Source of the DNA: Escherichia phage UPEC03
Sequence record: MW250785
Direction: 5' to 3' (one strand)
Length of the DNA stretch: 64,000 nt
The notes under the pieces were generated by a model. The model worked only from the letters and a program-made list of their open reading frames with translations, did no database searches and was not told the origin of the DNA. Positions 16,133 through 28,873 of the stretch are shown piece after piece. Position 1 is the first letter of the stretch. Each line of letters starts with the position of its first letter. The translations under genes were made by a program, and so were the position numbers.

Positions 16133-16792
16133 ATGAACATTGATTACGAAAAAGTTGATGGGTTCCGTACCCTCGACGCAAAAGAACAGAAAGGTGCTTT
16201 AGCCGATTACGCTATGACTGTGTTTGCGGTTAAGCTGAACAAACAAAAATCCTTCGATAACATGCTGGCGGATCTGGTTGCTGCTTTACCGGAAGATGAA
16301 GAAAAACCGGAACTGCTGATCGATTCCCCTGAACCGGAAATCGTTGCATATAAAGGTGAGGTGACTATGGGTGAACCTGTCATCGAAGCCCCGAACGTTC
16401 CCGATGTGGTTATTGATGCTTCTGCGGATTTTATGGAGTACGTTAAAGAGGTCGCGCCGGAAGTAGCCGATCAAATCCAATTAGTACCTGATGTCGTAGA
16501 AGCTCCTGTAAGCGCTTCTGACGAGTCCAAAGGCGAACTGGTATGGTTGGAAGGGTTTAGCCCAACAATCTTCATGATGGGGCGCTCTGCGAGTTCTAAC
16601 GGGTATTATACCTGTCCGTGGTGGATCTATGACTGGATTAAGCAAACCCCAGACTGGTACAAAGATCCTGATAGCTGTCCACATGCAAGCGCAATCGACA
16701 CAATCAAATCACTTGCGTTCTATATCGTGCGTGATGGTGAAGTTCGTGTTCGCGAAACCAGAAATAGCCGATTCGAAACATTTAAGTTTTAG
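16133..16792 (+). CDS. Hypothetical acidic protein
   Basis: 219 aa ORF, first gene of a + strand early cluster; no family recognised. Confidence 0.55.
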   Translation: MNIDYEKVDGFRTLDAKEQKGALADYAMTVFAVKLNKQKSFDNMLADLVAALPEDEEKPELLIDSPEPEIVAYKGEVTMGEPVIEAPNVPDVVIDASADFMEYVKEVAPEVADQIQLVPDVVEAPVSASDESKGELVWLEGFSPTIFMMGRSASSNGYYTCPWWIYDWIKQTPDWYKDPDSCPHASAIDTIKSLAFYIVRDGEVRVRETRNSRFETFKF

Positions 16793-16813
16793 CACTTTTT
16801 GCTAAAAAACTTG

Positions 16814-16842
16814 TTGACACATACCCTCGTTTAAAGTATATT
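16814..16842 (+). promoter_or_regulatory. Sigma70-like early promoter TTGACA-N17-TATATT
   Basis: Consensus -35 with A-rich upstream (aaaaacttg), typical of T4 early promoters. Confidence 0.6.
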
Positions 16843-16891
16843 TGTACTCGAAGGCGGGGGAATGGCTCTCGCAGTGAAGAAGGAAAGCAAA

Positions 16892-17206
16892 ATGAAAAAC
16901 GAAATGATGAAAAACGCTTACTACCCAGTTCTGTTTGTTTGGGTTGATGGTAAAGTGAAGAAAGTAGTCAATTCAAATGCTCCTTACTATACTGTTGGTG
17001 AAGCTCTGCGCCACGCTTACGAAGCTGATTATCCTGTTCCTGCTGAACCTGGTTACGCTCGTTGGAACGGTTCAAAATGGATTGCTGATACCTGGGACAA
17101 CTACGAAGAAGCAAGAATGGAAGATCCTGATTTCGTTACTCGTCAGATGGAAGCGCACATGATTGCAGACCGTCGCCTTGATAACGAATCTCGCGGTTTC
17201 TATTAA
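16892..17206 (+). CDS. Hypothetical protein
   Basis: ORF downstream of TTGACA-N17-TATATT promoter; start chosen at ATG with AAGGAAAG RBS (track start 16862). Confidence 0.55.
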   Translation: MKNEMMKNAYYPVLFVWVDGKVKKVVNSNAPYYTVGEALRHAYEADYPVPAEPGYARWNGSKWIADTWDNYEEARMEDPDFVTRQMEAHMIADRRLDNESRGFY

Positions 17207-17213
17207 AATTCAA

Positions 17214-17236
17214 AGGGGGCTACGCCCCCTTTTTTG
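17214..17236 (+). terminator. Intrinsic terminator
   Basis: agggggc-tac-gccccct hairpin + TTTTTT. Confidence 0.75.
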
Positions 17237-17246
17237 TAGGTAAAAT

Positions 17247-17819
17247 ATGACTGAATTAAATCACGAATGCCTGAAAGACTTATCAGAAGGTAAAGAGATC
17301 GGAAACGTCATCTTCCTTGATATCGACGGCGTTCTAAATAATATGCGGTGCATGAAATTTGGTGAGCATATGGACATTGAATGTGCTCGACACCTGCGCC
17401 GGATCGTAAATCATGCGAACTGTGATATTGTCATTTCCTCTACATGGAGGATCGGCAACACAACCCATACTCTACGGGAAATCTTCTATCCGTGGGGATT
17501 GTATCGCATCATTGGGAAAACCTGTACGAATCTAACAGACCGACAAGCAGGACGCGGTGATGAAATCAAAGCATGGATCGACACCTTCGGATGTAAGAAT
17601 TACCTTATCCTTGATGACGATACCGATATGCTGCCGGAACAGAGTGAACATTTCATCAATACCGATGGGTTCGTAGGGCTGACAGAAGAACAATCCACTT
17701 ACGCGATCCGTAATGTGTTCGGTGTAACAAACCCGTTCTGTCCTGAATGCAACGGCTATGGGCGCGTGAACCAATATGATAAATGTCCGTCTTGTGACGG
17801 CAAAATTTTACTTCTCTAA
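17247..17819 (+). CDS. HAD-superfamily phosphatase-like protein with C-terminal CxxCxGxG zinc ribbon
   Basis: FLDIDGVLNN (HAD motif I), ILDDD; C-terminal CPECNGYGR…CPSCDGK. Confidence 0.55.
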   Translation: MTELNHECLKDLSEGKEIGNVIFLDIDGVLNNMRCMKFGEHMDIECARHLRRIVNHANCDIVISSTWRIGNTTHTLREIFYPWGLYRIIGKTCTNLTDRQAGRGDEIKAWIDTFGCKNYLILDDDTDMLPEQSEHFINTDGFVGLTEEQSTYAIRNVFGVTNPFCPECNGYGRVNQYDKCPSCDGKILLL

Positions 17820-17846
17820 ATAGAGAAAAACTAAGAGGTTTTGAAA

Positions 17847-18350
17847 ATGGCTACAGAAAAATGGACTACGGTACACCCGATCCCGTGGCGTAACACCAGC
17901 TTTACCTATCTGCCGTGGTGGATCTTTGATATCATCGTGGCTGCGAATGCTGCAAGCGAAGACTGGCGTGATTATGCCGAAGAAAAATACGCGAAAGAAT
18001 TCGACACACTGAAACAGGCGTATATTGATTACACCGATGTTGATTTCATCGAATCCCGTAACGGTTATCTGTATAAGCTGAGTGATTTTACTCCTGCTGA
18101 TCCTGTCGTAACAATTACACCAAAAACCGCTCCTGCTGATTTCAAAGTAGGTGATGCGGATCTGGCTGCAACTGATCTGTTTACCATCGATCCTTCTGGT
18201 ACAGAAATGACTCTGAGTGTTGACTCTTCCGGTCATGGTTCTATCGTTGGTGGTAAACTTCATGCGGTTAGTGAAGGTGATGTTGTCGTAACAGCAACCT
18301 CTGGATCTGTTACTGCAACTCTGACGGTAAACGTTAAACCTGCACCATAA
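17847..18350 (+). CDS. Hypothetical protein with bacterial Ig-like (Big_2-type) C-terminal domain
   Basis: C-terminal AVSEGDVVVTATSGSVTATLTVNVK typical of Ig-like beta-sandwich; RBS AAGAGG. Confidence 0.5.
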   Translation: MATEKWTTVHPIPWRNTSFTYLPWWIFDIIVAANAASEDWRDYAEEKYAKEFDTLKQAYIDYTDVDFIESRNGYLYKLSDFTPADPVVTITPKTAPADFKVGDADLAATDLFTIDPSGTEMTLSVDSSGHGSIVGGKLHAVSEGDVVVTATSGSVTATLTVNVKPAP

Positions 18351-18370
18351 TAACAACTAAGAAGGTAAAA

Positions 18371-18871
18371 ATGCTACTATTTGAATTCAATGATGTATTC
18401 GCAAAATTCAGCGACGCAATCGAAGCCAAATTTGGCAAACGCCCACAAAACATGACAGATGCAGAATATGAAGCTGCTGTATCGTCCCTGGTTCGTACAG
18501 ATTTCTATGAAAAACTGGCGATCGAGGTGTTGGGTTGGGATATGATGAAATGGGGCATGACCTATCGCGATCGCGAAGTCGGTTTTATTCTCGTCAACGA
18601 AGCAAAAAGCCCGTCCTGGGTGAATAGTCAAAAAATCGCGTACATGGATAAAGTATGCGCACAGATGGGTATTGTACGTTTAGACTTCTGGACTTGTCGG
18701 GATCTGAACGAACTGAAAGCCCACGCTTACCGTTGCCCTCTGATCTCCCGCAACGATAAGCATCGTCAAGCATGGGATAGCGCGGGTAAATATCGAAGCG
18801 TTTACCTGAACGACGATATGAACATCACTATTCAGGATGTGAACCGCTCCTTTGCGGATTACACACCGTAA
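18371..18871 (+). CDS. Hypothetical protein
   Basis: 166 aa ORF followed by strong bidirectional hairpin terminator. Confidence 0.55.
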   Translation: MLLFEFNDVFAKFSDAIEAKFGKRPQNMTDAEYEAAVSSLVRTDFYEKLAIEVLGWDMMKWGMTYRDREVGFILVNEAKSPSWVNSQKIAYMDKVCAQMGIVRLDFWTCRDLNELKAHAYRCPLISRNDKHRQAWDSAGKYRSVYLNDDMNITIQDVNRSFADYTP

Positions 18872-18873
18872 AC

Positions 18874-18906
18874 AAAAAAGGGAACCGCAATGGTTCCCTT
18901 TCTTTT
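18874..18906. terminator. Bidirectional intrinsic terminator
   Basis: A-run, gggaacc-gcaa-tggttccc hairpin, T-run; separates + strand cluster from - strand kinase/nucleotidase pair. Confidence 0.8.
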
Positions 18907-19370
18907 TATGCAATTTTTCTGATTTCTTTCAATGCTTCTTCTTTGCTACCAACGAAGAGAATCGCTTTACCTCCGGCTTTTCTGAATGGCAACACAGCTT
19001 TTGCCCTGTCATCAATCAGTATACCTTTGTCCGCATATGCTGCTTTCTCTCCGCTGCTTTTGGTGTAGTGGAATTCAGGCAGATAACCGAACACCTTCAT
19101 CAACGCTTTTCTTTTTTGTTCTGCTACCGCATCGGAATTGTATTTCCCTACGCTGGTTAAGATCGCAACCTGACCTAAAGTTCTCAAATGACAGAACAGG
19201 TCGATGCCCTCTTGTAATGGTTCCAGATTTTCGTAGAAGTCAGTTTTTGATATTTCCTGTTTTGCTTTTTTCAATTCTTCTTCCGGCATTCTCGCCGGGT
19301 CACCGTACATCGGAATAAAAGAACCTTCCCAGTCAAACAGTACACCATCCATATCAAAGAAAAATTTCAT
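18906..19370 (-). CDS. HAD-family 5'(3')-deoxyribonucleotidase-like protein
   Basis: MKFFFDMDGVLFDW matches the NT5C-type DxDGVLxDF motif; start trimmed from track ORF to the Met preceding the motif. Confidence 0.6.
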   Translation of the reverse strand: MKFFFDMDGVLFDWEGSFIPMYGDPARMPEEELKKAKQEISKTDFYENLEPLQEGIDLFCHLRTLGQVAILTSVGKYNSDAVAEQKRKALMKVFGYLPEFHYTKSSGEKAAYADKGILIDDRAKAVLPFRKAGGKAILFVGSKEEALKEIRKIA

Positions 19371-19419
19371 ATCAGTTCCTCGGTTTGTGTGTGCATAATA
19401 TTCATATATGTTCCCATTG

Positions 19420-20253
19420 TCAACCCCATGTATCAGTTTTCGGTGCGTATGCTGCAACTTTAGCCACTAACTCTTTATCAAGCTGATCAATGGATTTCTG
19501 CGGCTTGCCTTTTGCCTTAACTTTTATGTAGTTAGACTTAACAACAAACATACCGCCTTTGTCAGATTTCTTGATTTCGCTGTCAATGCCTACTTTGTTG
19601 AAACTGATCCAGATATCGCCGTCCATGTACTGTTTCAGAGAGTCGCCCATATTCAGGATCTTCGCCATAGTGAGCGCTGCCCCTTCGTGGGTATCCATGA
19701 GGATTTCTTTAGGCACAACACGATCGCGTTTAAGGTTCTGTTGCATCGCAATATGAACATCGTTCATAACCCAAACGATATGGATGTTTTCTTTCTGATA
19801 ACCCAGCGCTTCAACATCACGGGCGATACTTGCCAGCTTGCTCATGCTTTTTAGGGTTACGTCAAAGATCAGGTTTGGTTTACGGTCTTCCGGTGCTGCT
19901 GCGATACCCGCGTACACACGCGCCTGGTTTTTGTTGGATACGTTGAACACGTCTGCGATCACATGATGCAGTGTTGCTACGTTGTCCGGGTTTTTCAGGT
20001 TCATTGTTTTGACATCGTGACCAGTTTTCGCTTTGATCTCTGCTGCCAGTTTGGTACTACCCATGACCAATTTTTTGAGTGCGTCAACGTCCAGGGTGAT
20101 CCCTTCGATACCTAACAGCTTTTCGAGGGTGAACCCTTTACCAGAACCCGCACCGCCAGCCAGGATGACTACCTGACCAAATTTAGGATAAGCCTTACCG
20201 CCGAAGGTGATCAGCGCTTCATCAAGGCTCGTAAAGTCTTTGAATGATTTCAT
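19420..20253 (-). CDS. P-loop kinase-like protein (Walker A GGAGSGKG)
   Basis: 277 aa; VVILAGGAGSGKGF P-loop near N-terminus; family not resolved (does not resemble recalled T4 dNMP kinase gp1). Confidence 0.55.
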   Translation of the reverse strand: MKSFKDFTSLDEALITFGGKAYPKFGQVVILAGGAGSGKGFTLEKLLGIEGITLDVDALKKLVMGSTKLAAEIKAKTGHDVKTMNLKNPDNVATLHHVIADVFNVSNKNQARVYAGIAAAPEDRKPNLIFDVTLKSMSKLASIARDVEALGYQKENIHIVWVMNDVHIAMQQNLKRDRVVPKEILMDTHEGAALTMAKILNMGDSLKQYMDGDIWISFNKVGIDSEIKKSDKGGMFVVKSNYIKVKAKGKPQKSIDQLDKELVAKVAAYAPKTDTWG

Positions 20254-20287
20254 CTTAGAACTCCATGTGTTTATTTAAAAGTATTTA

Positions 20288-20316
20288 TTGACACGGTTTA
20301 TGAGTGTGTTTATAGT
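20288..20316 (+). promoter_or_regulatory. Sigma70-like early promoter TTGACA-N17-TATAGT
   Basis: Consensus -35/-10; spacer contains TTATGAGTGTG, shared with the promoter at 24651. Confidence 0.6.
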
Positions 20317-20429
20317 GTAATTTTTCGACGGATTACCTGTCCAGAACAAAAGAAGACGTTGAAAAAGAATTTGTTGACTTGTCGGGCGAATAACGATAAG
20401 CTGTAATCTCTGAAAACAAGGAGATAACC

Positions 20430-20747
20430 ATGAATACCATTCACTGCCGCAAAGAGTTCGTTGAGTTCTATCACGGATCATGTACTGCTGCCGGAATTGA
20501 AAGCATGTTGTTGCCTCCTTGTGCTTCTGATACTCTGTCTGAAAAAGGCAGAAAGAAAAATCTGGATCGTGTTTTCTTCACTGCTGATATCGGGCTGGCT
20601 CGTATCTATGCTGGAAGGGCTGCACGTTCAATAGGTGGTGATCCGGTACTGTATCGGGTTGTGTGTCCGGTAGATGTGGTATGCATGAACGATGACAAAG
20701 GCGCAAGCGTTTATCATGCTGCATGGGCTTTCTGTGAGGAATTATGA
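20430..20747 (+). CDS. Candidate Arr-like (rifampin ADP-ribosyltransferase-fold) small protein
   Basis: 105 aa; FYHGS…, RVFFTAD…, VLYRVVCPVD resembles the Arr H-Y-D pattern as recalled; two sigma70-like promoters upstream. Confidence 0.3.
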   Translation: MNTIHCRKEFVEFYHGSCTAAGIESMLLPPCASDTLSEKGRKKNLDRVFFTADIGLARIYAGRAARSIGGDPVLYRVVCPVDVVCMNDDKGASVYHAAWAFCEEL

Positions 20748-20917
20748 AAGATAAGGTGTTAGCGTATCTCGTTTTCTTGCTGGGATATCGCGTTGAAGTG
20801 ATGGGTGGTTATTCTTCTTTGTATGGGGATTTAACCGCGATCTGGATGGTTGCGTTGGGGGTTATGTTTACCTTTATGGCGATCTGTATTGCGAATGAGG
20901 CTGATCAAAATGCTTGA
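20744..20917 (+). CDS. Small hydrophobic (membrane) peptide
   Basis: 57 aa ORF; ATG overlaps upstream stop and its stop overlaps next ATG (translational coupling); hydrophobic LAYLVFLLGY…AIWMVALGVMFTFMAICIA. Confidence 0.4.
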   Translation: MKDKVLAYLVFLLGYRVEVMGGYSSLYGDLTAIWMVALGVMFTFMAICIANEADQNA

Positions 20918-21275
20918 ATTTTATCCTGCTGGTTGCAAGTCAAATCCGCCTGATGCATCGTTCCAATCCTGGATTTATTTTCACAGGGAACTAAACGACA
21001 TCATCGAAAGTCAGTGGAAAGACCATCCTGAACGAAGTGCCCCCGATTTAGTCGATAGCGTAACAGATGTACGCACCCTGGAAAAAGGGCTGTATGATTG
21101 TCTGGTTCAGGGAATGATGTGTAAATTGATTTTGTGGTATGCTCCGATCGGTTCAGATCTAACTCGCAAAATCGCCCGTGGTTATATCATGACGAAACGT
21201 GAGTTTGACCAGATCTGGAACGAACCCGACTGTTTCGAACGCGAAAAATACGAAAATGAGGTTAGTTGTATATGA
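20910..21275 (+). CDS. Hypothetical protein
   Basis: ORF; start at ATG (MLEFYPAG) in frame with track ORF 20850. Confidence 0.5.
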   Translation: MLEFYPAGCKSNPPDASFQSWIYFHRELNDIIESQWKDHPERSAPDLVDSVTDVRTLEKGLYDCLVQGMMCKLILWYAPIGSDLTRKIARGYIMTKREFDQIWNEPDCFEREKYENEVSCI

Positions 21276-21600: not shown

Positions 21601-21945
21601 ATGAAAATCGTTCAGCGTAATATCAGCGAAGTTAGCCAGCAGGAAAAAGTACAGATTCATTTCAAATTCAATGATCTGAAACTGGGCTATGCACAGATCG
21701 CCCGTGAGCACATGCTCGATAACGGCGACATTTACGTGATTGTTCAGGAAATTGAGCGAATTCGTGCTTTCCGCGCAGAAAATCCAAAAGTGAAACATGC
21801 TCTGCGCCGTGTGTACATCAATAAACATCGTGAAGAACAGCGTAAGCCTAAGACAAAAGCTAAACGCGATCCGCGTCCAGATAACAAACGTAAAGCAATC
21901 AACGGCGCTATGGCGCTGGCGTTCCAGGAAGCGGGTTTGGTGTAA
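21601..21945 (+). CDS. Hypothetical protein with basic C-terminus
   Basis: 114 aa ORF. Confidence 0.5.
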   Translation: MKIVQRNISEVSQQEKVQIHFKFNDLKLGYAQIAREHMLDNGDIYVIVQEIERIRAFRAENPKVKHALRRVYINKHREEQRKPKTKAKRDPRPDNKRKAINGAMALAFQEAGLV

Positions 21946-21954
21946 GGGGTTTAT

Positions 21955-22497
21955 ATGTCTTCAATGATGAATCGCTGGTCGGGCGTGATAACTTCGACTA
22001 TCAAAAAGGATTTGGTGAAGGTTGAGACAAAACCAAAGCCAGTAGAATCGGAAACGGTATCCCCGAAAAAGGTTCAAACTTTGGTATCCCTCGATCCTGC
22101 TGAGTTAGAACACCGCCGCCGTGCAAAACAAATTGAATTCGATCTGCGTGTCGCTCGTTCATACAACAGTAAAAACGATGATGCGCGTAACCGCAACCTT
22201 CAATTTGCTCTGACGTTAAGCGACTGGGCGAAGTTAATGAGTGAACCCGTATGTTCTTACTCCGGCAGACCGTTTAGCAATAAAGGCGGTTGCTCTGACT
22301 CCCGAACAATGGAACGAATCAACGCTTCTCTGGGGTATACGGTTGAAAACACGATCGCAGTAACCAGCGCCGCGAATAGCGAGAAATCAAATCTCGATGC
22401 GTTTATGAAGGGTTCTGTGATCCTTCCAGAAGTAAAACTGAAACTGTTACGCAAAGCTGCGTATCAAATTGAAAAACAACTGAAAATCAAAGGTTAA
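21955..22497 (+). CDS. HNH-like (His-Me finger-type) domain protein
   Basis: CSYSGRPF…ERINASLGYTVENTIAVTSAANSEKSN resembles HNH core. Confidence 0.35.
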   Translation: MSSMMNRWSGVITSTIKKDLVKVETKPKPVESETVSPKKVQTLVSLDPAELEHRRRAKQIEFDLRVARSYNSKNDDARNRNLQFALTLSDWAKLMSEPVCSYSGRPFSNKGGCSDSRTMERINASLGYTVENTIAVTSAANSEKSNLDAFMKGSVILPEVKLKLLRKAAYQIEKQLKIKG

Positions 22498-22500
22498 ATT

Positions 22501-23547
22501 ATGTTTGTGAAATATTCTTCTCTGACTAACCATTATGAAGGTAAATTCATCAATGGTGTGATCATGAATGGTTTTACTGGTTGTGTGTGGGTTGCGCGTG
22601 AAAAGATCCACGGGGCTAATTTTAGCCTGATTACCTCGGACGGTATCAAAGTCATTCCGGCAAAACGTAGCGGTGAAATTCTCCCTGCTGAACAGTTCTA
22701 CGGTTGTGAACCAGTAGTTGCAAAATACTCCGAACCTGTTCGTAAGCTGTGGGAAATTTTAGCAAATACCTGTGAATATAAGGAATATGCTGATACTGGT
22801 TCTTTGGTTGTTCAGGTATACGGCGAATTTGCGGGGCGTGGTGTTCAGAAAGATGTTGACTACGGCGAAAAAGATTTCTACGTATTTGATATCCGCGTTA
22901 ATGGTCAATTCCTCCCTGATAACGTTGTTGCAAATTACGCTGTTGCTGTTGGCCTGAAAATGGCTCCACTGCTGGCATACGGTACGTTTGACGAGATCCG
23001 CGCATTGCCTATCACCTTTGATTCGGTGGTTAACCTGGCGAACTCCGGTGCGATCCCTGCAAAGAACGGTGTTGAACCTGAGTTCAAAAACTTCATGATG
23101 CTGAAAGATGATGAAGGTGAGAACATCGCAGAAGGTTTCGTGATGAAGCCTGTTCAACCCGCTTTCATGCCGAACGGTGAACGTGTTGCAATCAAATGCA
23201 AAACGACGAAGTTCACCGAGAAGAAGAACAAGCAAGCGAACCGCTTCAATGCTCCTTCTGAACTGTCAGAAACAGACAAAGTGAAGCTGAACGAATTCAC
23301 CTGCTTCCTGACTGAAAACCGTGTGAAAAACGTCCTGTCAAAAATTGACAGCGCGAATCTCACCGCGAAAGATTTCGGTCGCGTGATGGGGCTGACGGTA
23401 CAGGATGCGCTGGAAGAAATCGAACGTAACTACGGACCTTTCCTGGAACAGTTCGAAAATCCAACGCTGGCGAAGAAAACCTTCACTAACGAAGCGTCAA
23501 ATCTGGTTCGTGAGAACTGGGGCGCAATCCTGAACAATGAATTTTAA
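22501..23547 (+). CDS. rnlB: RNA ligase 2 (RnlB/Rnl2)
   Basis: 348 aa; WVAREKIHGANFSL (ligase KxHG motif I), DFYVFDI, VAIKCK, GRVMGLTVQDALEE match recalled T4 Rnl2. Confidence 0.92.
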   Translation: MFVKYSSLTNHYEGKFINGVIMNGFTGCVWVAREKIHGANFSLITSDGIKVIPAKRSGEILPAEQFYGCEPVVAKYSEPVRKLWEILANTCEYKEYADTGSLVVQVYGEFAGRGVQKDVDYGEKDFYVFDIRVNGQFLPDNVVANYAVAVGLKMAPLLAYGTFDEIRALPITFDSVVNLANSGAIPAKNGVEPEFKNFMMLKDDEGENIAEGFVMKPVQPAFMPNGERVAIKCKTTKFTEKKNKQANRFNAPSELSETDKVKLNEFTCFLTENRVKNVLSKIDSANLTAKDFGRVMGLTVQDALEEIERNYGPFLEQFENPTLAKKTFTNEASNLVRENWGAILNNEF

Positions 23548-24118
23548 ATCTGTTCTCGAAAACGCAAAAACGGCTACCCTGATCGGTAGCCGTGAACCCC
23601 CTGAACGTATCGCGAGTATAGCCATAAAGATTGGACGTGCTTTAAGTGATCGGGGGATCTTCGCTTACTCTGGTGGTGCTCCTGGAATGGATAGCCATTT
23701 CATGTTTGACTACTCACCAGAAAGACGGCGTATAATCCTCCCTGAGAACGGTTTTAACGGGTTGTATTCGAATGGTAAGGATATCATCGACTATACAGAA
23801 TACGACACGTACAAAGCCGCTGACGAAGCGAGAAAGGTAGCTGGACACTTCGACAACCAAAACGAATGGACACAACGCCGATACGCTCGCAATTCAATGC
23901 AGGTATTAACCGAAAACCTGGACAAACCTACAGATTTTGTTCTATTCTGGGCGGTAGAGAAAGATTTTTGTGTTAAAGGTGGTACTGCGATTGCTGCAAG
24001 GCTTGCCAGATTGTATAAAGTTCCAACGTTCAACCTTTGGAATCAAAACGTTCTGGATGAAGTCTGCGATACTTTAGGGATTAACACTAAACCTCCTACT
24101 CTGGATTTTCTCTGGTGA
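23537..24118 (+). CDS. DprA/Smf-like (SLOG Rossmann) domain protein
   Basis: GSREPPE…IGRALSDRGIFAYSGGAPGMDSHF resembles DprA GSR…SGGAxGxDxxxH motif. Confidence 0.4.
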   Translation: MNFKSVLENAKTATLIGSREPPERIASIAIKIGRALSDRGIFAYSGGAPGMDSHFMFDYSPERRRIILPENGFNGLYSNGKDIIDYTEYDTYKAADEARKVAGHFDNQNEWTQRRYARNSMQVLTENLDKPTDFVLFWAVEKDFCVKGGTAIAARLARLYKVPTFNLWNQNVLDEVCDTLGINTKPPTLDFLW

Positions 24119-25466: not shown

Positions 25467-26900
25467 ATGCAAAAATTTAATGAACTGAATAGCCTGATCA
25501 CCTCAACTGATTCCTATAAAGTGTCCCACTGGTTGCAGTATCCACAAGGCACTGATGCAGCGATGTTCTATATTGAATCTCGCGGTGGTAAGTTTGATGA
25601 AGTAGTAACCGCTGGCGTTAACTTCGTTGCGCGGGTTCTTGCTGAACCAATTACCATGAAACAAGTTGAGTTGGCACGGGTACTTTACCGTAAGCACTTT
25701 GGGAAAGAGATTTTCAACTACAAAGGGTGGAAGAAGATCGCAGAACTGGGTTATGTCCCTGTTACTTTCCGTGCGATCCCAGAAGGTACGGTTGTTCCGG
25801 TTAAAAATGCCGTTGCGACTGTGTACGCCGAACGTGAATTCTCATGGGTGGCTGGGTGGCTGGAGACAATGACGATTCGCGGTATCTGGTATCCGTCATC
25901 TGTAGCAACGCTATCGCGCGAGTGTAAAAAGGTTCTGGCTCATTACCTTGATATGACTTCTGACCTGACTGGTGAAGCATATAACATCACACTGGGTACA
26001 CGTCTGCATGATTTCGGGGCGCGTGGCGCGACCTCTGCTGAATCTGCTGGTATTGGTGGGCTGGCACACCTCTATAACTTCATCGGGACTGATACCGTTG
26101 AAGGTATGATTATGGCAATCAGTCTGTTTGCGGACTATCAAACTCTGTTTGACGAAGTTGAAAACGTCGAAGCAATCGGTGTTTCAATTCCGGCTCGCGA
26201 ACATTCGACTACGATTTCCTACGGTAAAGAGAACGAAGACGAAGCATACAAAAACAGCATCGAAATGTTCGGTACAGGGTTCTACGCTTGTGTGTATGAT
26301 TCCTGGGACTATAAAGGCGCTGTAGATCGCATCGCTGAATATAAAGAGCAAATCATTGCTGCGGGTGGTACTCTGGTTGTTCGTCCTGATTCCGGTGATA
26401 TGATTGATAACATCATGTACACCCTGCGTAAACTGGGCGAAATCTTCGGATACACCGTAAACAGCAAAGGTTATAAAGTTCTGCATAATTCAGTTCGAAT
26501 CATCCAGGGCGACGAGATCCACGGGCCTGAAACAATCAACCGTGTGTTAAGTTGGATGGAAGCGAACAAGTGGGCGAGTGAGAACATCGCGTTCGGTATG
26601 GGCGGCGGTTTGCTGCAAGAAGTTACCCGCGACACTCAAAAGTATGCTGAAAAACTGTGCGCTATCCGCGTGAATGGTGTGTGGAAAGGTGTTTACAAAT
26701 GCCCGAAAGGTTCCGAATGGAAACAGAGTAAGAAAGGTTTGCTGATGACCATCACTAACGGTGTGGAATTCAAAACAATCGACACTCTGGAAACTGAGAT
26801 TCCTGACGGGTGGCGTGATGCGATGATTACGTATTACGACAACGGTGTATTAAACACCTCCGATACAGTAGGGGTTATCCGTGAGCGAGCAAGGATTTAA
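25467..26900 (+). CDS. nadV: Nicotinamide phosphoribosyltransferase (Nampt/NadV family)
   Basis: 477 aa; N-terminal …TDSYKVSHWLQYP… signature and overall length typical of Nampt; phage NadV is known from KVP40-type T4-like phages. Confidence 0.85.
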   Translation: MQKFNELNSLITSTDSYKVSHWLQYPQGTDAAMFYIESRGGKFDEVVTAGVNFVARVLAEPITMKQVELARVLYRKHFGKEIFNYKGWKKIAELGYVPVTFRAIPEGTVVPVKNAVATVYAEREFSWVAGWLETMTIRGIWYPSSVATLSRECKKVLAHYLDMTSDLTGEAYNITLGTRLHDFGARGATSAESAGIGGLAHLYNFIGTDTVEGMIMAISLFADYQTLFDEVENVEAIGVSIPAREHSTTISYGKENEDEAYKNSIEMFGTGFYACVYDSWDYKGAVDRIAEYKEQIIAAGGTLVVRPDSGDMIDNIMYTLRKLGEIFGYTVNSKGYKVLHNSVRIIQGDEIHGPETINRVLSWMEANKWASENIAFGMGGGLLQEVTRDTQKYAEKLCAIRVNGVWKGVYKCPKGSEWKQSKKGLLMTITNGVEFKTIDTLETEIPDGWRDAMITYYDNGVLNTSDTVGVIRERARI

Positions 26901-27189
26901 TATCCGCGCCAACGATAACGGATCAGTAGTCTTCTACAACAATCAGCCCCTTGTCGCTCGCAAGGGGCTTTTTTGTAAGTTGGTGGGCTACGGGTTCAAG
27001 TTGGAACAGGTGGACAACGCGACACTAAAAGAGGTTGTTCGAATTGCTTATCTGCTGAAAGATAAAAAAGATGAACACCGTGCTATTGCAATGCTTGAGA
27101 AATTAGGCGAAAATTATTGCTTCGTGGTGAATCGTGGGTATAAGTACGAAACGATCGCCTTATTTGAGAAAGGACTTGGTGAATTATGA
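26881..27189 (+). CDS. Hypothetical protein
   Basis: 102 aa ORF with GTG start overlapping nadV 3' end. Confidence 0.45.
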   Translation: MSEQGFNIRANDNGSVVFYNNQPLVARKGLFCKLVGYGFKLEQVDNATLKEVVRIAYLLKDKKDEHRAIAMLEKLGENYCFVVNRGYKYETIALFEKGLGEL

Positions 27190-28025
27190 TTACCACAATC
27201 AAAGAAGGGGTTGACCTCCATTTAGGCGACTCCGTAAAGCTGATTAAACAGCTTGAATCTGGTTCTGTTGACTTGACCATAACTTCGCCTCCGTATGACA
27301 ACTTGCGCCATTATAACGGCTCTGGTGATGTCTGGGGTGAACACGTATGGAAAGAGTTGATATCGGAACTGTACCGCGTTACCGCTCCTGGTGGTGTGGT
27401 TGTGTGGGTTGTGGGTGACGCGACTATCAACGGTAGTGAAACGGGTACATCTTTCCGTCAAGCCTTGTACGCGATCGAACAAGGTTTTCGGTTGCATGAT
27501 ACGATGATCTATCACAAAACCGCTCTACCGAAGAACCATAACCGATACGAACAGGACTTTGAATACATGTTCGTGTGGACAAAAGGCGCACCAAAAACAT
27601 TCAACCCGATCCGCATTCCGTGTAAGTTCCCTGAAAAGGAAACCGCACGACAAAACAGCTACTTTTCCGAAACCAACGAAAAGAACCGTTCAGCCCGTTC
27701 CGGTAAGAAACGTAAACCTGTTGGCAAGGATAAAATTAAGGGTAATATCTGGTATTACGCTGTAGGGCGCAATCACTCAACGAAGGACGAGATTGCATTC
27801 AAACACCCAGCAATATTTCCTGAACAACTGGCAGAAGATCACATTAAAACGTGGACGGTTGAAGGGGACTTGGTTCTTGATATTTTCTCTGGTTCTGGTA
27901 CAGTTATGAAAATGTCGATACTAACCAACAGACGGTTCAAAGGCTTCGAACTGATGGAGAATTATTATCACGATTCTATTCTTCGTGTTCAGCCATACGT
28001 TAACAATCTGGAATCTTTTCTATGA
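27186..28025 (+). CDS. DNA amino-methyltransferase, beta-class (N4-cytosine or N6-adenine)
   Basis: Motif IV TITSPPY near N-terminus, motif I DIFSGSGT near C-terminus (beta permutation); the SPPY variant is more typical of N4C-MTases. Confidence 0.8.
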   Translation: MITTIKEGVDLHLGDSVKLIKQLESGSVDLTITSPPYDNLRHYNGSGDVWGEHVWKELISELYRVTAPGGVVVWVVGDATINGSETGTSFRQALYAIEQGFRLHDTMIYHKTALPKNHNRYEQDFEYMFVWTKGAPKTFNPIRIPCKFPEKETARQNSYFSETNEKNRSARSGKKRKPVGKDKIKGNIWYYAVGRNHSTKDEIAFKHPAIFPEQLAEDHIKTWTVEGDLVLDIFSGSGTVMKMSILTNRRFKGFELMENYYHDSILRVQPYVNNLESFL

Positions 28026-28873
28026 GTTATTTGGGTGTTATCCCGTATACAGGTAACAAGCAATCGCTATTGCCTGAACTCTTCAAGCTGTTCCCCGAAA
28101 GAAGTTCATACATGCGTTTCATTGATTGTTTTTGCGGTGGTCTTAGTGTGTCGTTAAACGTCCCTAAACCCGTTCTAAGCAACGATTATGATAAGACGCT
28201 TATTGATATGTATGAGCGTCTTAAAACGCTTCCTGACCTGTCTCCGGTGCGAGAATTGATTGCATCGAAGGGACTGGGGAAAGACAAGAAAGAAGAGTAT
28301 CTGAAATTCCGTGATGAATACAACCAGAATAAAGATCCTTTATGGCTCTATGTCCTGATCCTGCATTCATTCAGCAACGTTAACCGGACAAACGACAAAG
28401 GCGACTTCAACGCTAATTTTGGATGCCGGACGCTCAACGATGCAACAGTAAAACGCTTTGAACATTTCAAAAAGAATGTGAAAGGCATTGAGTTTTCCAG
28501 TGGTTCATTCCGTGACATTGATATCTGTGAAAATGATTTCGTGTATTGCGATCCTCCGTATCTGATCACTGATGCGGTGTATAACAAATTCTGGAACGCA
28601 GATCACGAACGCGAGTTATATGCTTTCCTTGACTCCCTGCATGAGCGGGGTATTTGGTTTGGTTTGTCCAACGTGACTCACCATGCCGGAAAACAAAATG
28701 ATACCCTGATTGAATGGATGCAGAAATACCGCGTTCATAATCTGGATAAAAAGTATCTGTTAGGCCAGCATACCGACTCTTACGAGCAAAACAAAACGCA
28801 AGAAGTCTACGTGTGCAACTACCAGAAACGCGACGTAAATACATTCCCTTTAACACTGAACGATTTAATGTAG
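28022..28873 (+). CDS. dam: DNA adenine methyltransferase Dam (T4 Dam-like)
   Basis: IPYTGNKQSLLPEL, FIDCFCGGLSVSLNV, DFVYCDPPYLIT match recalled T4 Dam. Confidence 0.92.
   Translation: MSYLGVIPYTGNKQSLLPELFKLFPERSSYMRFIDCFCGGLSVSLNVPKPVLSNDYDKTLIDMYERLKTLPDLSPVRELIASKGLGKDKKEEYLKFRDEYNQNKDPLWLYVLILHSFSNVNRTNDKGDFNANFGCRTLNDATVKRFEHFKKNVKGIEFSSGSFRDIDICENDFVYCDPPYLITDAVYNKFWNADHERELYAFLDSLHERGIWFGLSNVTHHAGKQNDTLIEWMQKYRVHNLDKKYLLGQHTDSYEQNKTQEVYVCNYQKRDVNTFPLTLNDLM

Follow-up and report, generated by a model that had tools for sequence, protein, structure and literature searches.

A zeta-toxin-like kinase linked to an NT5C-type phosphatase in T4-like phages: a possible nucleotide-metabolising pair

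The described systems closest to the gene pair considered here are the kinases of the zeta/PezT and AvrRxo1 type, the bifunctional polynucleotide kinase-phosphatases (T4 PseT, Pnkp and mammalian PNKP), the 5'(3')-deoxyribonucleotidases of the NT5C family (mdN/NT5M, cdN/NT5C and the bacterial 3bwv) and bifunctional enzymes of the NadR/CoA synthase type. In animal cells, NT5C enzymes and kinases form substrate cycles. Among phages, the zeta-like kinases of polyvalent proteins have been proposed to target cell-wall precursors (PMC5512222). In this study, we have analysed 64,000 nucleotides of Escherichia phage UPEC03 (sequence record MW250785; this whole stretch is called the window), a T4-type myovirus of the RB43/GAP161 group (Pseudotevenvirus), which carries, in an otherwise plus-strand region, a two-gene minus-strand island encoding a 277-aa P-loop kinase and a 154-aa HAD phosphatase of the NT5C type (Table 1). 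Our results lead us to favour, tentatively and with somewhat less than even confidence, that the two proteins form a coupled nucleotide-salvage or pool-remodelling pair. Both families are already catalogued, and the genes are annotated (inconsistently) in public genomes; what is new here is the evidence for coupling to NT5C, the range of nucleotide-enzyme fusions and the exclusion of the simplest roles.

The evidence that carries this proposal is the recurrent linkage of the two families. Eighty metagenomic viral loci with relatives of the kinase were fetched, and their open reading frames (ORFs) were called and searched with profiles of both proteins. An NT5C-type HAD lies next to the kinase, or is fused to it, in 15 of 81 loci, and three arrangements are found, with the HAD immediately downstream, with the HAD immediately upstream, or with both in a single HAD-kinase ORF (435 aa at locus L015, 465 aa at L018 and L019). 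Pfam confirmed both NT5C and Zeta_toxin on the fusion, NT5C scoring 34.2 and 25.8 bits on fusion proteins, and a database search with it returned three clusters of HAD-kinase fusions (P0313, P0314 and P0330), down to 42% identity. The opposite order also exists, as an exhaustive profile search located NT5C at residues 282-427 of the kinase-HAD fusion P0200. Adjacency in the three arrangements occurs among kinases that are only ~52-64% identical to the one in the window. It is the fusions in both orders, together with the three gene arrangements, that argue for a shared function of kinase and phosphatase, and the functional pairing that an earlier note on this DNA had proposed from the letters thus gains support.

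At the fusion loci, the fused gene stands between regA and the genes for a DNMK-family deoxynucleoside monophosphate (dNMP) kinase and DNA polymerase; a DUF1937 protein is encoded close by, and at L031 an unfused kinase-HAD pair is found between regA and DNA polymerase. In ~19 marine loci, a staphylococcal-nuclease homologue is encoded two genes upstream; nucleases of this class yield 3'-phosphate products. Kinase homologues are also fused to HD (P0198), NUDIX (P0250) and CTP_transf_like HIGH-type nucleotidyltransferase (P0176) domains, nucleotide-enzyme partners that we count in favour of a nucleotide pair, as well as to domains, some ParB-like and some uncharacterised, of the kind found in polyvalent phage proteins. 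Neither the c18-like and ParB-like fusion domains nor two conserved marine neighbours (c3 and c4) had an informative match in Pfam, PHROGs or the PDB.

Both ORFs of the window are real, conserved genes. In PHROGs, the kinase matches phrog_5268 (E 6e-153) and the HAD matches phrog_2643 (E 6e-58), the 5'-3' deoxyribonucleotidase family of that collection. GGAG lies 8 nt upstream of the kinase ATG and GAGGAA upstream of that of the HAD, whose N-terminus reads MKFFFDMDGVLFDW. Because its homologues start near FDMDG (18/18 of those aligned begin within a few residues of it), and because of the GAGGAA, we take the 154-aa reading to be right, and a TTG-extended ORF of 183 aa was rejected. The kinase protein is identical in Cronobacter phage GAP161, and positions 17000-21000 are 98-99% identical to Cronobacter phage JC03, Klebsiella phage Kp_GWPR59, vB_CsaM_leB and many others. 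All the neighbours of the pair (16133-18871 on one side, 20430 and beyond on the other) are plus-strand genes, so the opposite-strand island reported in the earlier note stands. A comparison of composition with the flanks, also suggested there, gave GC fractions of 0.46 and 0.42 for the two genes (window mean 0.449 +/- 0.024) and codon-usage z-scores of +0.88 and -0.14, which are typical of the window, and a recent foreign insertion was therefore rejected.

The kinase scores above the cut-off of Pfam Zeta_toxin (PF06414; 33 bits against 22.3, E 5.3e-8), the match covering residues 104-199 only, and PF06414 is precomputed on most of its homologues. By sequence, neither the single protein nor the family profile found anything meaningful in the PDB, fold comparison alone being informative. 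The best scores of the kinase model are with AvrRxo1 (13.8), zeta (12.5), the C. thermocellum Pnkp kinase (12.1), PezT (11.0), T4 Pnk (10.8), Pnkp1 (9.8) and mammalian PNKP (9.1), whereas nucleoside monophosphate (NMP) kinases reach at most 8.8, dephospho-CoA kinases at most 8.2 and deoxynucleoside kinases at most 7.0; the Foldseek ranking is concordant. Of the families against which the earlier note had wished to see the protein compared, the polynucleotide kinases are thus indeed close, together with the zeta toxins and AvrRxo1, and the NMP and deoxynucleoside kinases lie further off. In BFVD, the neighbours are mostly named 'Zeta toxin domain containing' and some putative polynucleotide kinase or Pnkp1. 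The nearest fold neighbours (AvrRxo1, zeta/PezT, and the C. thermocellum and T4 Pnk) are kinases for hydroxyl groups on the ribose or sugar moiety of nucleotides or nucleic acids.

Invariant in the family are AGGAxSGKG, D55xD57xxK60, D131xT133, R176xR178 and T188-H189. The Walker A consensus GxxGxGK[ST] is not followed, since a Gly comes after the Lys in ~90% of the homologues, with the glycine-rich loop and the Lys kept. A profile-sequence alignment places the invariant residues on the P-loop, IDNDTFK and IEGTGR of zeta, and alignment to T4 Pnk places them on its ISDTNL and lid segments. The segment paired with D55xD57xxK60 is IDNDTFK, which holds the catalytic Asp67 of zeta, and counterparts are found both of this Asp and of the E/T/R segment of the substrate site. 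An invariant Asp at the general-base position is a hallmark of kinases that phosphorylate hydroxyls, NMP kinases needing none, and by this analogy it would point to a hydroxyl acceptor. With zeta/PezT and AvrRxo1, however, the kinase shares only 12-16% identity, and it differs from them in the Gly that replaces Ser/Thr after the P-loop Lys, in an extra C-terminal beta-rich region (~residues 210-277), and in being paired with an NT5C nucleotidase, with no antitoxin partner, in lytic T4-like phages.

The family is large, with 2,485 proteins in a 90% collection and 1,125 clusters at 50% identity. Members occur in RB43, RB16, KP15-like phages, GAP161, Aeromonas 65/CC2, Cronobacter S13, Tenacibaculum PTm5 and marine T4-like phages, including loci with cyanophage-type genes, and distant homologues are present in KVP40-like phages; none was found in T4, T2 or T6. 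Their public names are inconsistent, and range from hypothetical protein, zeta toxin family protein and polynucleotide kinase to adenylate kinase and head morphogenesis protein. In the KVP40-like Vibrio phage TCU-VP03-AIR1 (L084, 4956-6401), the homologue (~25% identity) forms the N-terminal portion of a phrog_14490 protein of 481 aa, whose gene directly follows that of the late sigma factor gp55. Many homologues (P0170, P0179, P0204, P0218, P0230, P0243, P0245, P0259 and P0277) carry an intein-like insertion exactly in the P-loop (AGGAG|C...HN|SGKGF), in some cases with a segment of homing-endonuclease size; such insertions would mark the P-loop as a conserved and functionally critical site.

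Regarding the HAD, motifs I-IV are intact, D6, D8, K109, D120 and D121 being invariant and S73 nearly so in 19 homologues. The single sequence falls just below the cut-off of Pfam NT5C (PF06941; 21.2 bits against 24.8), PF06941 is precomputed on several homologues, and the family profile finds in the PDB the human mitochondrial (mdN) and cytosolic (cdN) 5'(3')-deoxyribonucleotidases and the bacterial 3bwv (E 6e-11 to 8e-8). No Pnkp or PNKP chain was matched, the other matches being unrelated small-molecule HADs, and for these reasons we assign the protein to the NT5C and not to the Pnkp type. By family it is an NT5C-type nucleotidase of predicted activity, which shares with mdN, cdN and 3bwv the DMDGVLxDF and the LIDDR segment of motif IV as well as a helical insert after motif I, but is shorter (154 against ~195-205 aa) and is linked or fused to a zeta-like kinase. 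In its AF2 model (pLDDT 97.3), the helices between motifs I and II may form a cap, a feature that in HADs would favour small substrates. Neither HAD nor kinase matched anything in NCBIfam or PADLOC, and thus neither is tied to known defence systems.

Convergent to this gene, the window encodes a second NT5C-type HAD of 166 aa (phrog_2643, E 3e-54) with degenerate motifs, FDMDGV having become FEFNDV and LIDDR having become LISRN, and with motif II lost. In the KP15-like versions, motif I is retained and motifs II and IV are still lost. To judge from these residues, the paralogue is probably a non-catalytic, nucleotide-binding pseudoenzyme.

The simplest roles for the kinase are already filled in close relatives. 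A full-length homologue of T4 PseT (38% identity, 99% coverage) is encoded by phages such as vB_CsaM_leB, and the relative Olmo is annotated with PseT, with RNA ligase 2 (Rnl2) and, at another genome position, with an RNA ligase 1-type gene; with gp1 dNMP kinase, thymidine kinase (Tk), NadV and NMN adenylyltransferase (NMNAT); and with dUTPase, dCMP deaminase, thymidylate synthase and both ribonucleotide reductases. The kinase as a replacement for gp1, Tk or PseT was therefore rejected, and it appears instead as an extra, fourth kinase of nucleotide type.

In the model that we favour, kinase and HAD would be functionally coupled and make up a module of nucleotide metabolism in T4-like phages, with sigma-70-type promoters probably driving its early expression. 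The kinase would use ATP to phosphorylate a sugar hydroxyl on a substrate of the nucleoside or nucleotide type, and the HAD would act as a 5'(3')-(deoxy)nucleotidase, the chemistry amounting to the logic of Pnkp applied to small substrates. The nucleotidase would first take a 3' phosphate, or one that is unusable for another reason, off the mono- or oligonucleotides left by breakdown, the kinase would then phosphorylate the 5'-OH, and the resulting 5'-(d)NMPs would be available to the phage dNMP kinase, ribonucleotide reductase and DNA polymerase. Such a scheme is preferred because it explains why kinase and phosphatase are kept together or fused without a futile cycle, and because it fits the replication, dNMP-kinase and nuclease contexts. 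What we infer from these observations is that the acceptor is a hydroxyl and the substrate a small nucleotide, that the two reactions follow this order and that salvage is their purpose.

Several points weigh against this model. The top fold neighbours, AvrRxo1 and zeta, phosphorylate the 3'-OH of NAD or UDP-GlcNAc and not a 5'-OH, and T4-type phages obtain 5'-dNMPs directly from host DNA, so that the need for a 3'-to-5' salvage is unproven. It is also conceivable, from the Gly after the P-loop Lys (GKG), as in adenylate and CMP kinases, that the acceptor is a phosphate. About 80% of the kinase loci have no HAD within ~5 kb; in a neighbour-joining tree, the HAD-linked kinases fall in two basal clades, and a large marine clade, which includes loci with cyanophage-type genes, has no HAD nearby. 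With the linkage gathered mainly in two clades, some of it reflects common descent, and the marine nuclease synteny may likewise be inherited gene order without a functional link. Finally, no characterised member of the family was found in the literature on zeta-like kinases in T4-like phages, on AvrRxo1 in phages or on anti-defence P-loop kinases.

Among the alternatives, the one that survives best, although we consider it unlikely, is a kinase directed at NAD or nucleotide sugars in the manner of AvrRxo1 or zeta, which would act on a ribose or sugar hydroxyl of NAD, of an ADP-ribose-derived molecule or of UDP-GlcNAc. Such a kinase would serve to take over the host, to control the NAD/NADP pool or to inactivate a nucleotide immune signal, with the HAD as an opposing or downstream phosphatase. 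The Zeta_toxin score, the aligned zeta motifs and the top fold neighbours all speak for it, as does the cell-wall-precursor proposal made for the zeta-like kinases of polyvalent proteins (PMC5512222), while the partner HAD is of the deoxyribonucleotidase type and no epsilon-, PezA- or Arc1-like inhibitor gene adjoins the kinase in the window or its relatives. Genes of an NAD or ADP-ribose type are found close by, namely NadV, 5 kb from the kinase, and a DprA/SLOG-like gene; NMNAT is annotated in Olmo, and in one relative, Cronobacter phage Cronuts, the 105-aa protein encoded divergently from the kinase is labelled 'putative ADP-ribosyl transferase', a label that Pfam does not support. In other lineages, however, NadV is not near the kinase within loci of +/- 5 kb, and the context of the fusion loci is replication and dNMP kinase, not NAD. 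A resemblance to the architectures of NadR and NadM (PMC9503650) is seen where the kinase is fused to Nudix or to a HIGH-type nucleotidyltransferase, but the union of a HIGH-superfamily nucleotidyltransferase with the kinase, present in P0176, is uncommon among the homologues and does not occur in the window, and the nucleotidyltransferase of P0176, all of whose NCBIfam matches are far below the cut-offs, is not assignable to NMNAT or PPAT. NARP3 was also considered as a relevant system and was rejected, since it consists of PnuC and NadR.

A split polynucleotide kinase-phosphatase, in which the kinase would act on 5'-OH ends of RNA or DNA, the HAD on 3'-phosphates, and the nearby Rnl2 would seal, as a second route against anticodon nucleases, had been put forward in the earlier note and is not favoured; we regard it as rather improbable. 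The note had correctly placed Rnl2 ~2 kb away (2.25 kb from the island), and a HAD_SAK_2 RNA-repair phosphatase lies 1.6 kb off; yet Rnl2 accompanies the kinase in only 6 of 82 loci, the six closest to the window, and is absent within ~5 kb elsewhere. The fusion of kinase and HAD in both orders is reminiscent of T4 Pnkp and mammalian PNKP, and hhalign pairs the kinase segments FDVTLK and NLKRDRVVP with ISDTNL and the lid NSKRGTKAVP of T4 Pnk, and some BFVD neighbours bear polynucleotide kinase names, but the window phosphatase belongs to NT5C, with no sequence match to the Pnkp phosphatases, and AAA_33, which we take to be the Pfam model matching Pnk-type kinases, gives only E 0.036, below its cut-off. 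A genuine bifunctional PseT is present elsewhere in close relatives, Olmo has the RNA ligase 1-type gene in addition, and replication and dNMP kinase, again, form the context of the fusion loci. The 190-aa HAD_SAK_2 protein (a 'Swiss Army Knife' RNA-repair HAD; E 2e-29), with DIDGV intact and a C-terminal CxxC zinc-ribbon/DnaJ-like motif, would fit the part of RNA 3'-end phosphatase better than the NT5C-type HAD does.

It is also rather improbable, to about the same degree, that the family represents a new activity of large phages. With its NT5C partner, the kinase could shift the phosphate of mononucleotides from 3' to 5', which would be a previously undescribed salvage route; alternatively, its targets for phosphorylation could be molecules derived from NAD or nucleotides, immune signals for instance, and the catalytically dead NT5C paralogue could then serve as ligand binder. 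The P-loop inteins and the ~1,100 clusters suggest that the kinase activity matters to many phages.

Less probable still is that two accessory genes of independent function happen to sit in one minus-strand transcription unit, the HAD being a stand-alone dNMP nucleotidase and the kinase unrelated to it. Most kinase loci indeed have no HAD nearby, the HAD gene has a strong promoter-like site of its own, and T4-type genomes are full of small unrelated early genes, but fusions in both orders and three adjacency arrangements are hard to explain without a shared function. A classical dNMP (or NMP) kinase that reshapes dNTP pools with the nucleotidase, the alternative of the earlier note, is very improbable as regards the kinase, for despite a P-loop, GGAGSGKG, resembling the GKG loop of adenylate and CMP kinases, one public record that calls an orthologue adenylate kinase, and the substrate cycles of animal cells, no ADK, DNMK or other NMP- or dNMP-kinase model of Pfam or NCBIfam matches, the invariant Asp points to a hydroxyl acceptor, and gp1 and Tk are already in Olmo; the other half of that alternative, a pair acting on nucleotide pools, fits better.

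Table 1. Features of the island and its surroundings (positions in the window; promoter-like sites are given with spacer length and matches to the consensus).
Feature	Position	Strand	Basis and remarks
Kinase gene	19420-20253	-	ORF, 277 aa, ATG start; P-loop kinase of the zeta-toxin/AvrRxo1/polynucleotide-kinase clade (phrog_5268)
HAD phosphatase gene	18906-19370	-	ORF, 154 aa, ATG start; NT5C 5'(3')-deoxyribonucleotidase family (phrog_2643)
Bidirectional intrinsic-terminator-like hairpin	18877-18901	both	11-bp stem, A-run before and T-run after; common to the convergent genes 18371-18871(+) and 18906-19370(-)
Sigma-70-like site TTGACA-17-TATAGT, 11/12	20288-20316	+	Consensus scan; points away from the island and marks its right-hand boundary
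Weak sigma-70-like site TGGACA-18-TACACT, 9/12	20343-20314	-	Consensus scan; upstream of the kinase gene
Strong sigma-70-like site TTGACA-17-TATTAT, 11/12	19423-19395	-	Consensus match alone; within the 3' end of the kinase gene, shortly before the HAD gene
HAD_SAK_2 gene	17247-17819	+	190 aa
Degenerate NT5C-type paralogue gene	18371-18871	+	166 aa
105-aa gene	20430-20747	+	phrog_2110
180-aa gene	21955-22497	+	
Rnl2 gene	22501-23547	+	348 aa; Pfam RNA_ligase and T4_Rnl2_C
DprA/SLOG-like gene	23537-24118	+	193 aa; phrog_768
NadV/Nampt gene	25467-26900	+	NAPRTase and NAMPT_N
Methyltransferase gene	27186-28025	+	N6_N4_Mtase
Methyltransferase gene	28022-28873	+	D12 Dam

The island is bounded on its left by a hairpin that, given the A-run and T-run flanking its stem, can terminate both convergent transcripts, in agreement with the bidirectional terminator read from the letters; its folding energy is -20.5 kcal/mol (z = -3.9), a value that no shuffle out of 200 reached. 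On the right, the 176-nt intergenic region between the divergent genes (20254-20429) had been predicted to hold promoters in both directions. The plus-strand site is a good match and, in relatives, precedes a 289-aa gene missing from the window, whereas the minus-strand site is weak and not established, its -35 half lying beyond a deletion junction specific to the window. The strong site ahead of the HAD gene would, on its consensus match, allow an early transcription of the HAD independent of the kinase. Since promoter-like sites are no more numerous in the region than in shuffles (17 against 15 +/- 4), these sites are plausible but not proven. Between 16000 and 24500 no T4 late promoter (TATAAATA) was found, and the sole MotA-box match, at 21899(-), is off the island.

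The deletion removes ~838 bp at ~20328-20333 (compared with L001, 7348-8187), and with it the 289-aa gene (phrog_7439) that stands between the kinase and the 105-aa gene in every listed relative and for which Pfam, PHROGs and the PDB gave nothing informative. At the junction there is a microhomology of 6 nt, AC(G/T)GAT, and the deletion joins two plus-strand promoter-like sites upstream of the 105-aa gene. Promoter-early stem-loop cassettes were considered as the cause of the local indel; the literature found concerns phi1/RB49. Further along the plus strand, the 180-aa protein matches the PHROGs 'Srd/decoy of host sigma70' and HNH endonuclease and has no Pfam match. The Rnl2 gene overlaps by 11 nt the DprA/SLOG-like gene, whose product has weak ShosA and PsyrA matches in PADLOC, which suggests that the ligase is translationally coupled to a nucleotide-binding Rossmannoid protein. 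Of the two adjacent methyltransferase genes, the N6_N4_Mtase gene appears to be an extra insertion in this genome, because Olmo has the Dam-type gene alone at that site.

All together, the recurrent fusion to NT5C offers a concrete handle on the substrate of the kinase. If the pair is a salvage or pool-remodelling device, it would be an extra step in the nucleotide supply network of T4-type phages, and public annotations would be corrected; if the kinase acts instead on NAD-type molecules, it would belong with the NAD counter-defence pathways of phages.

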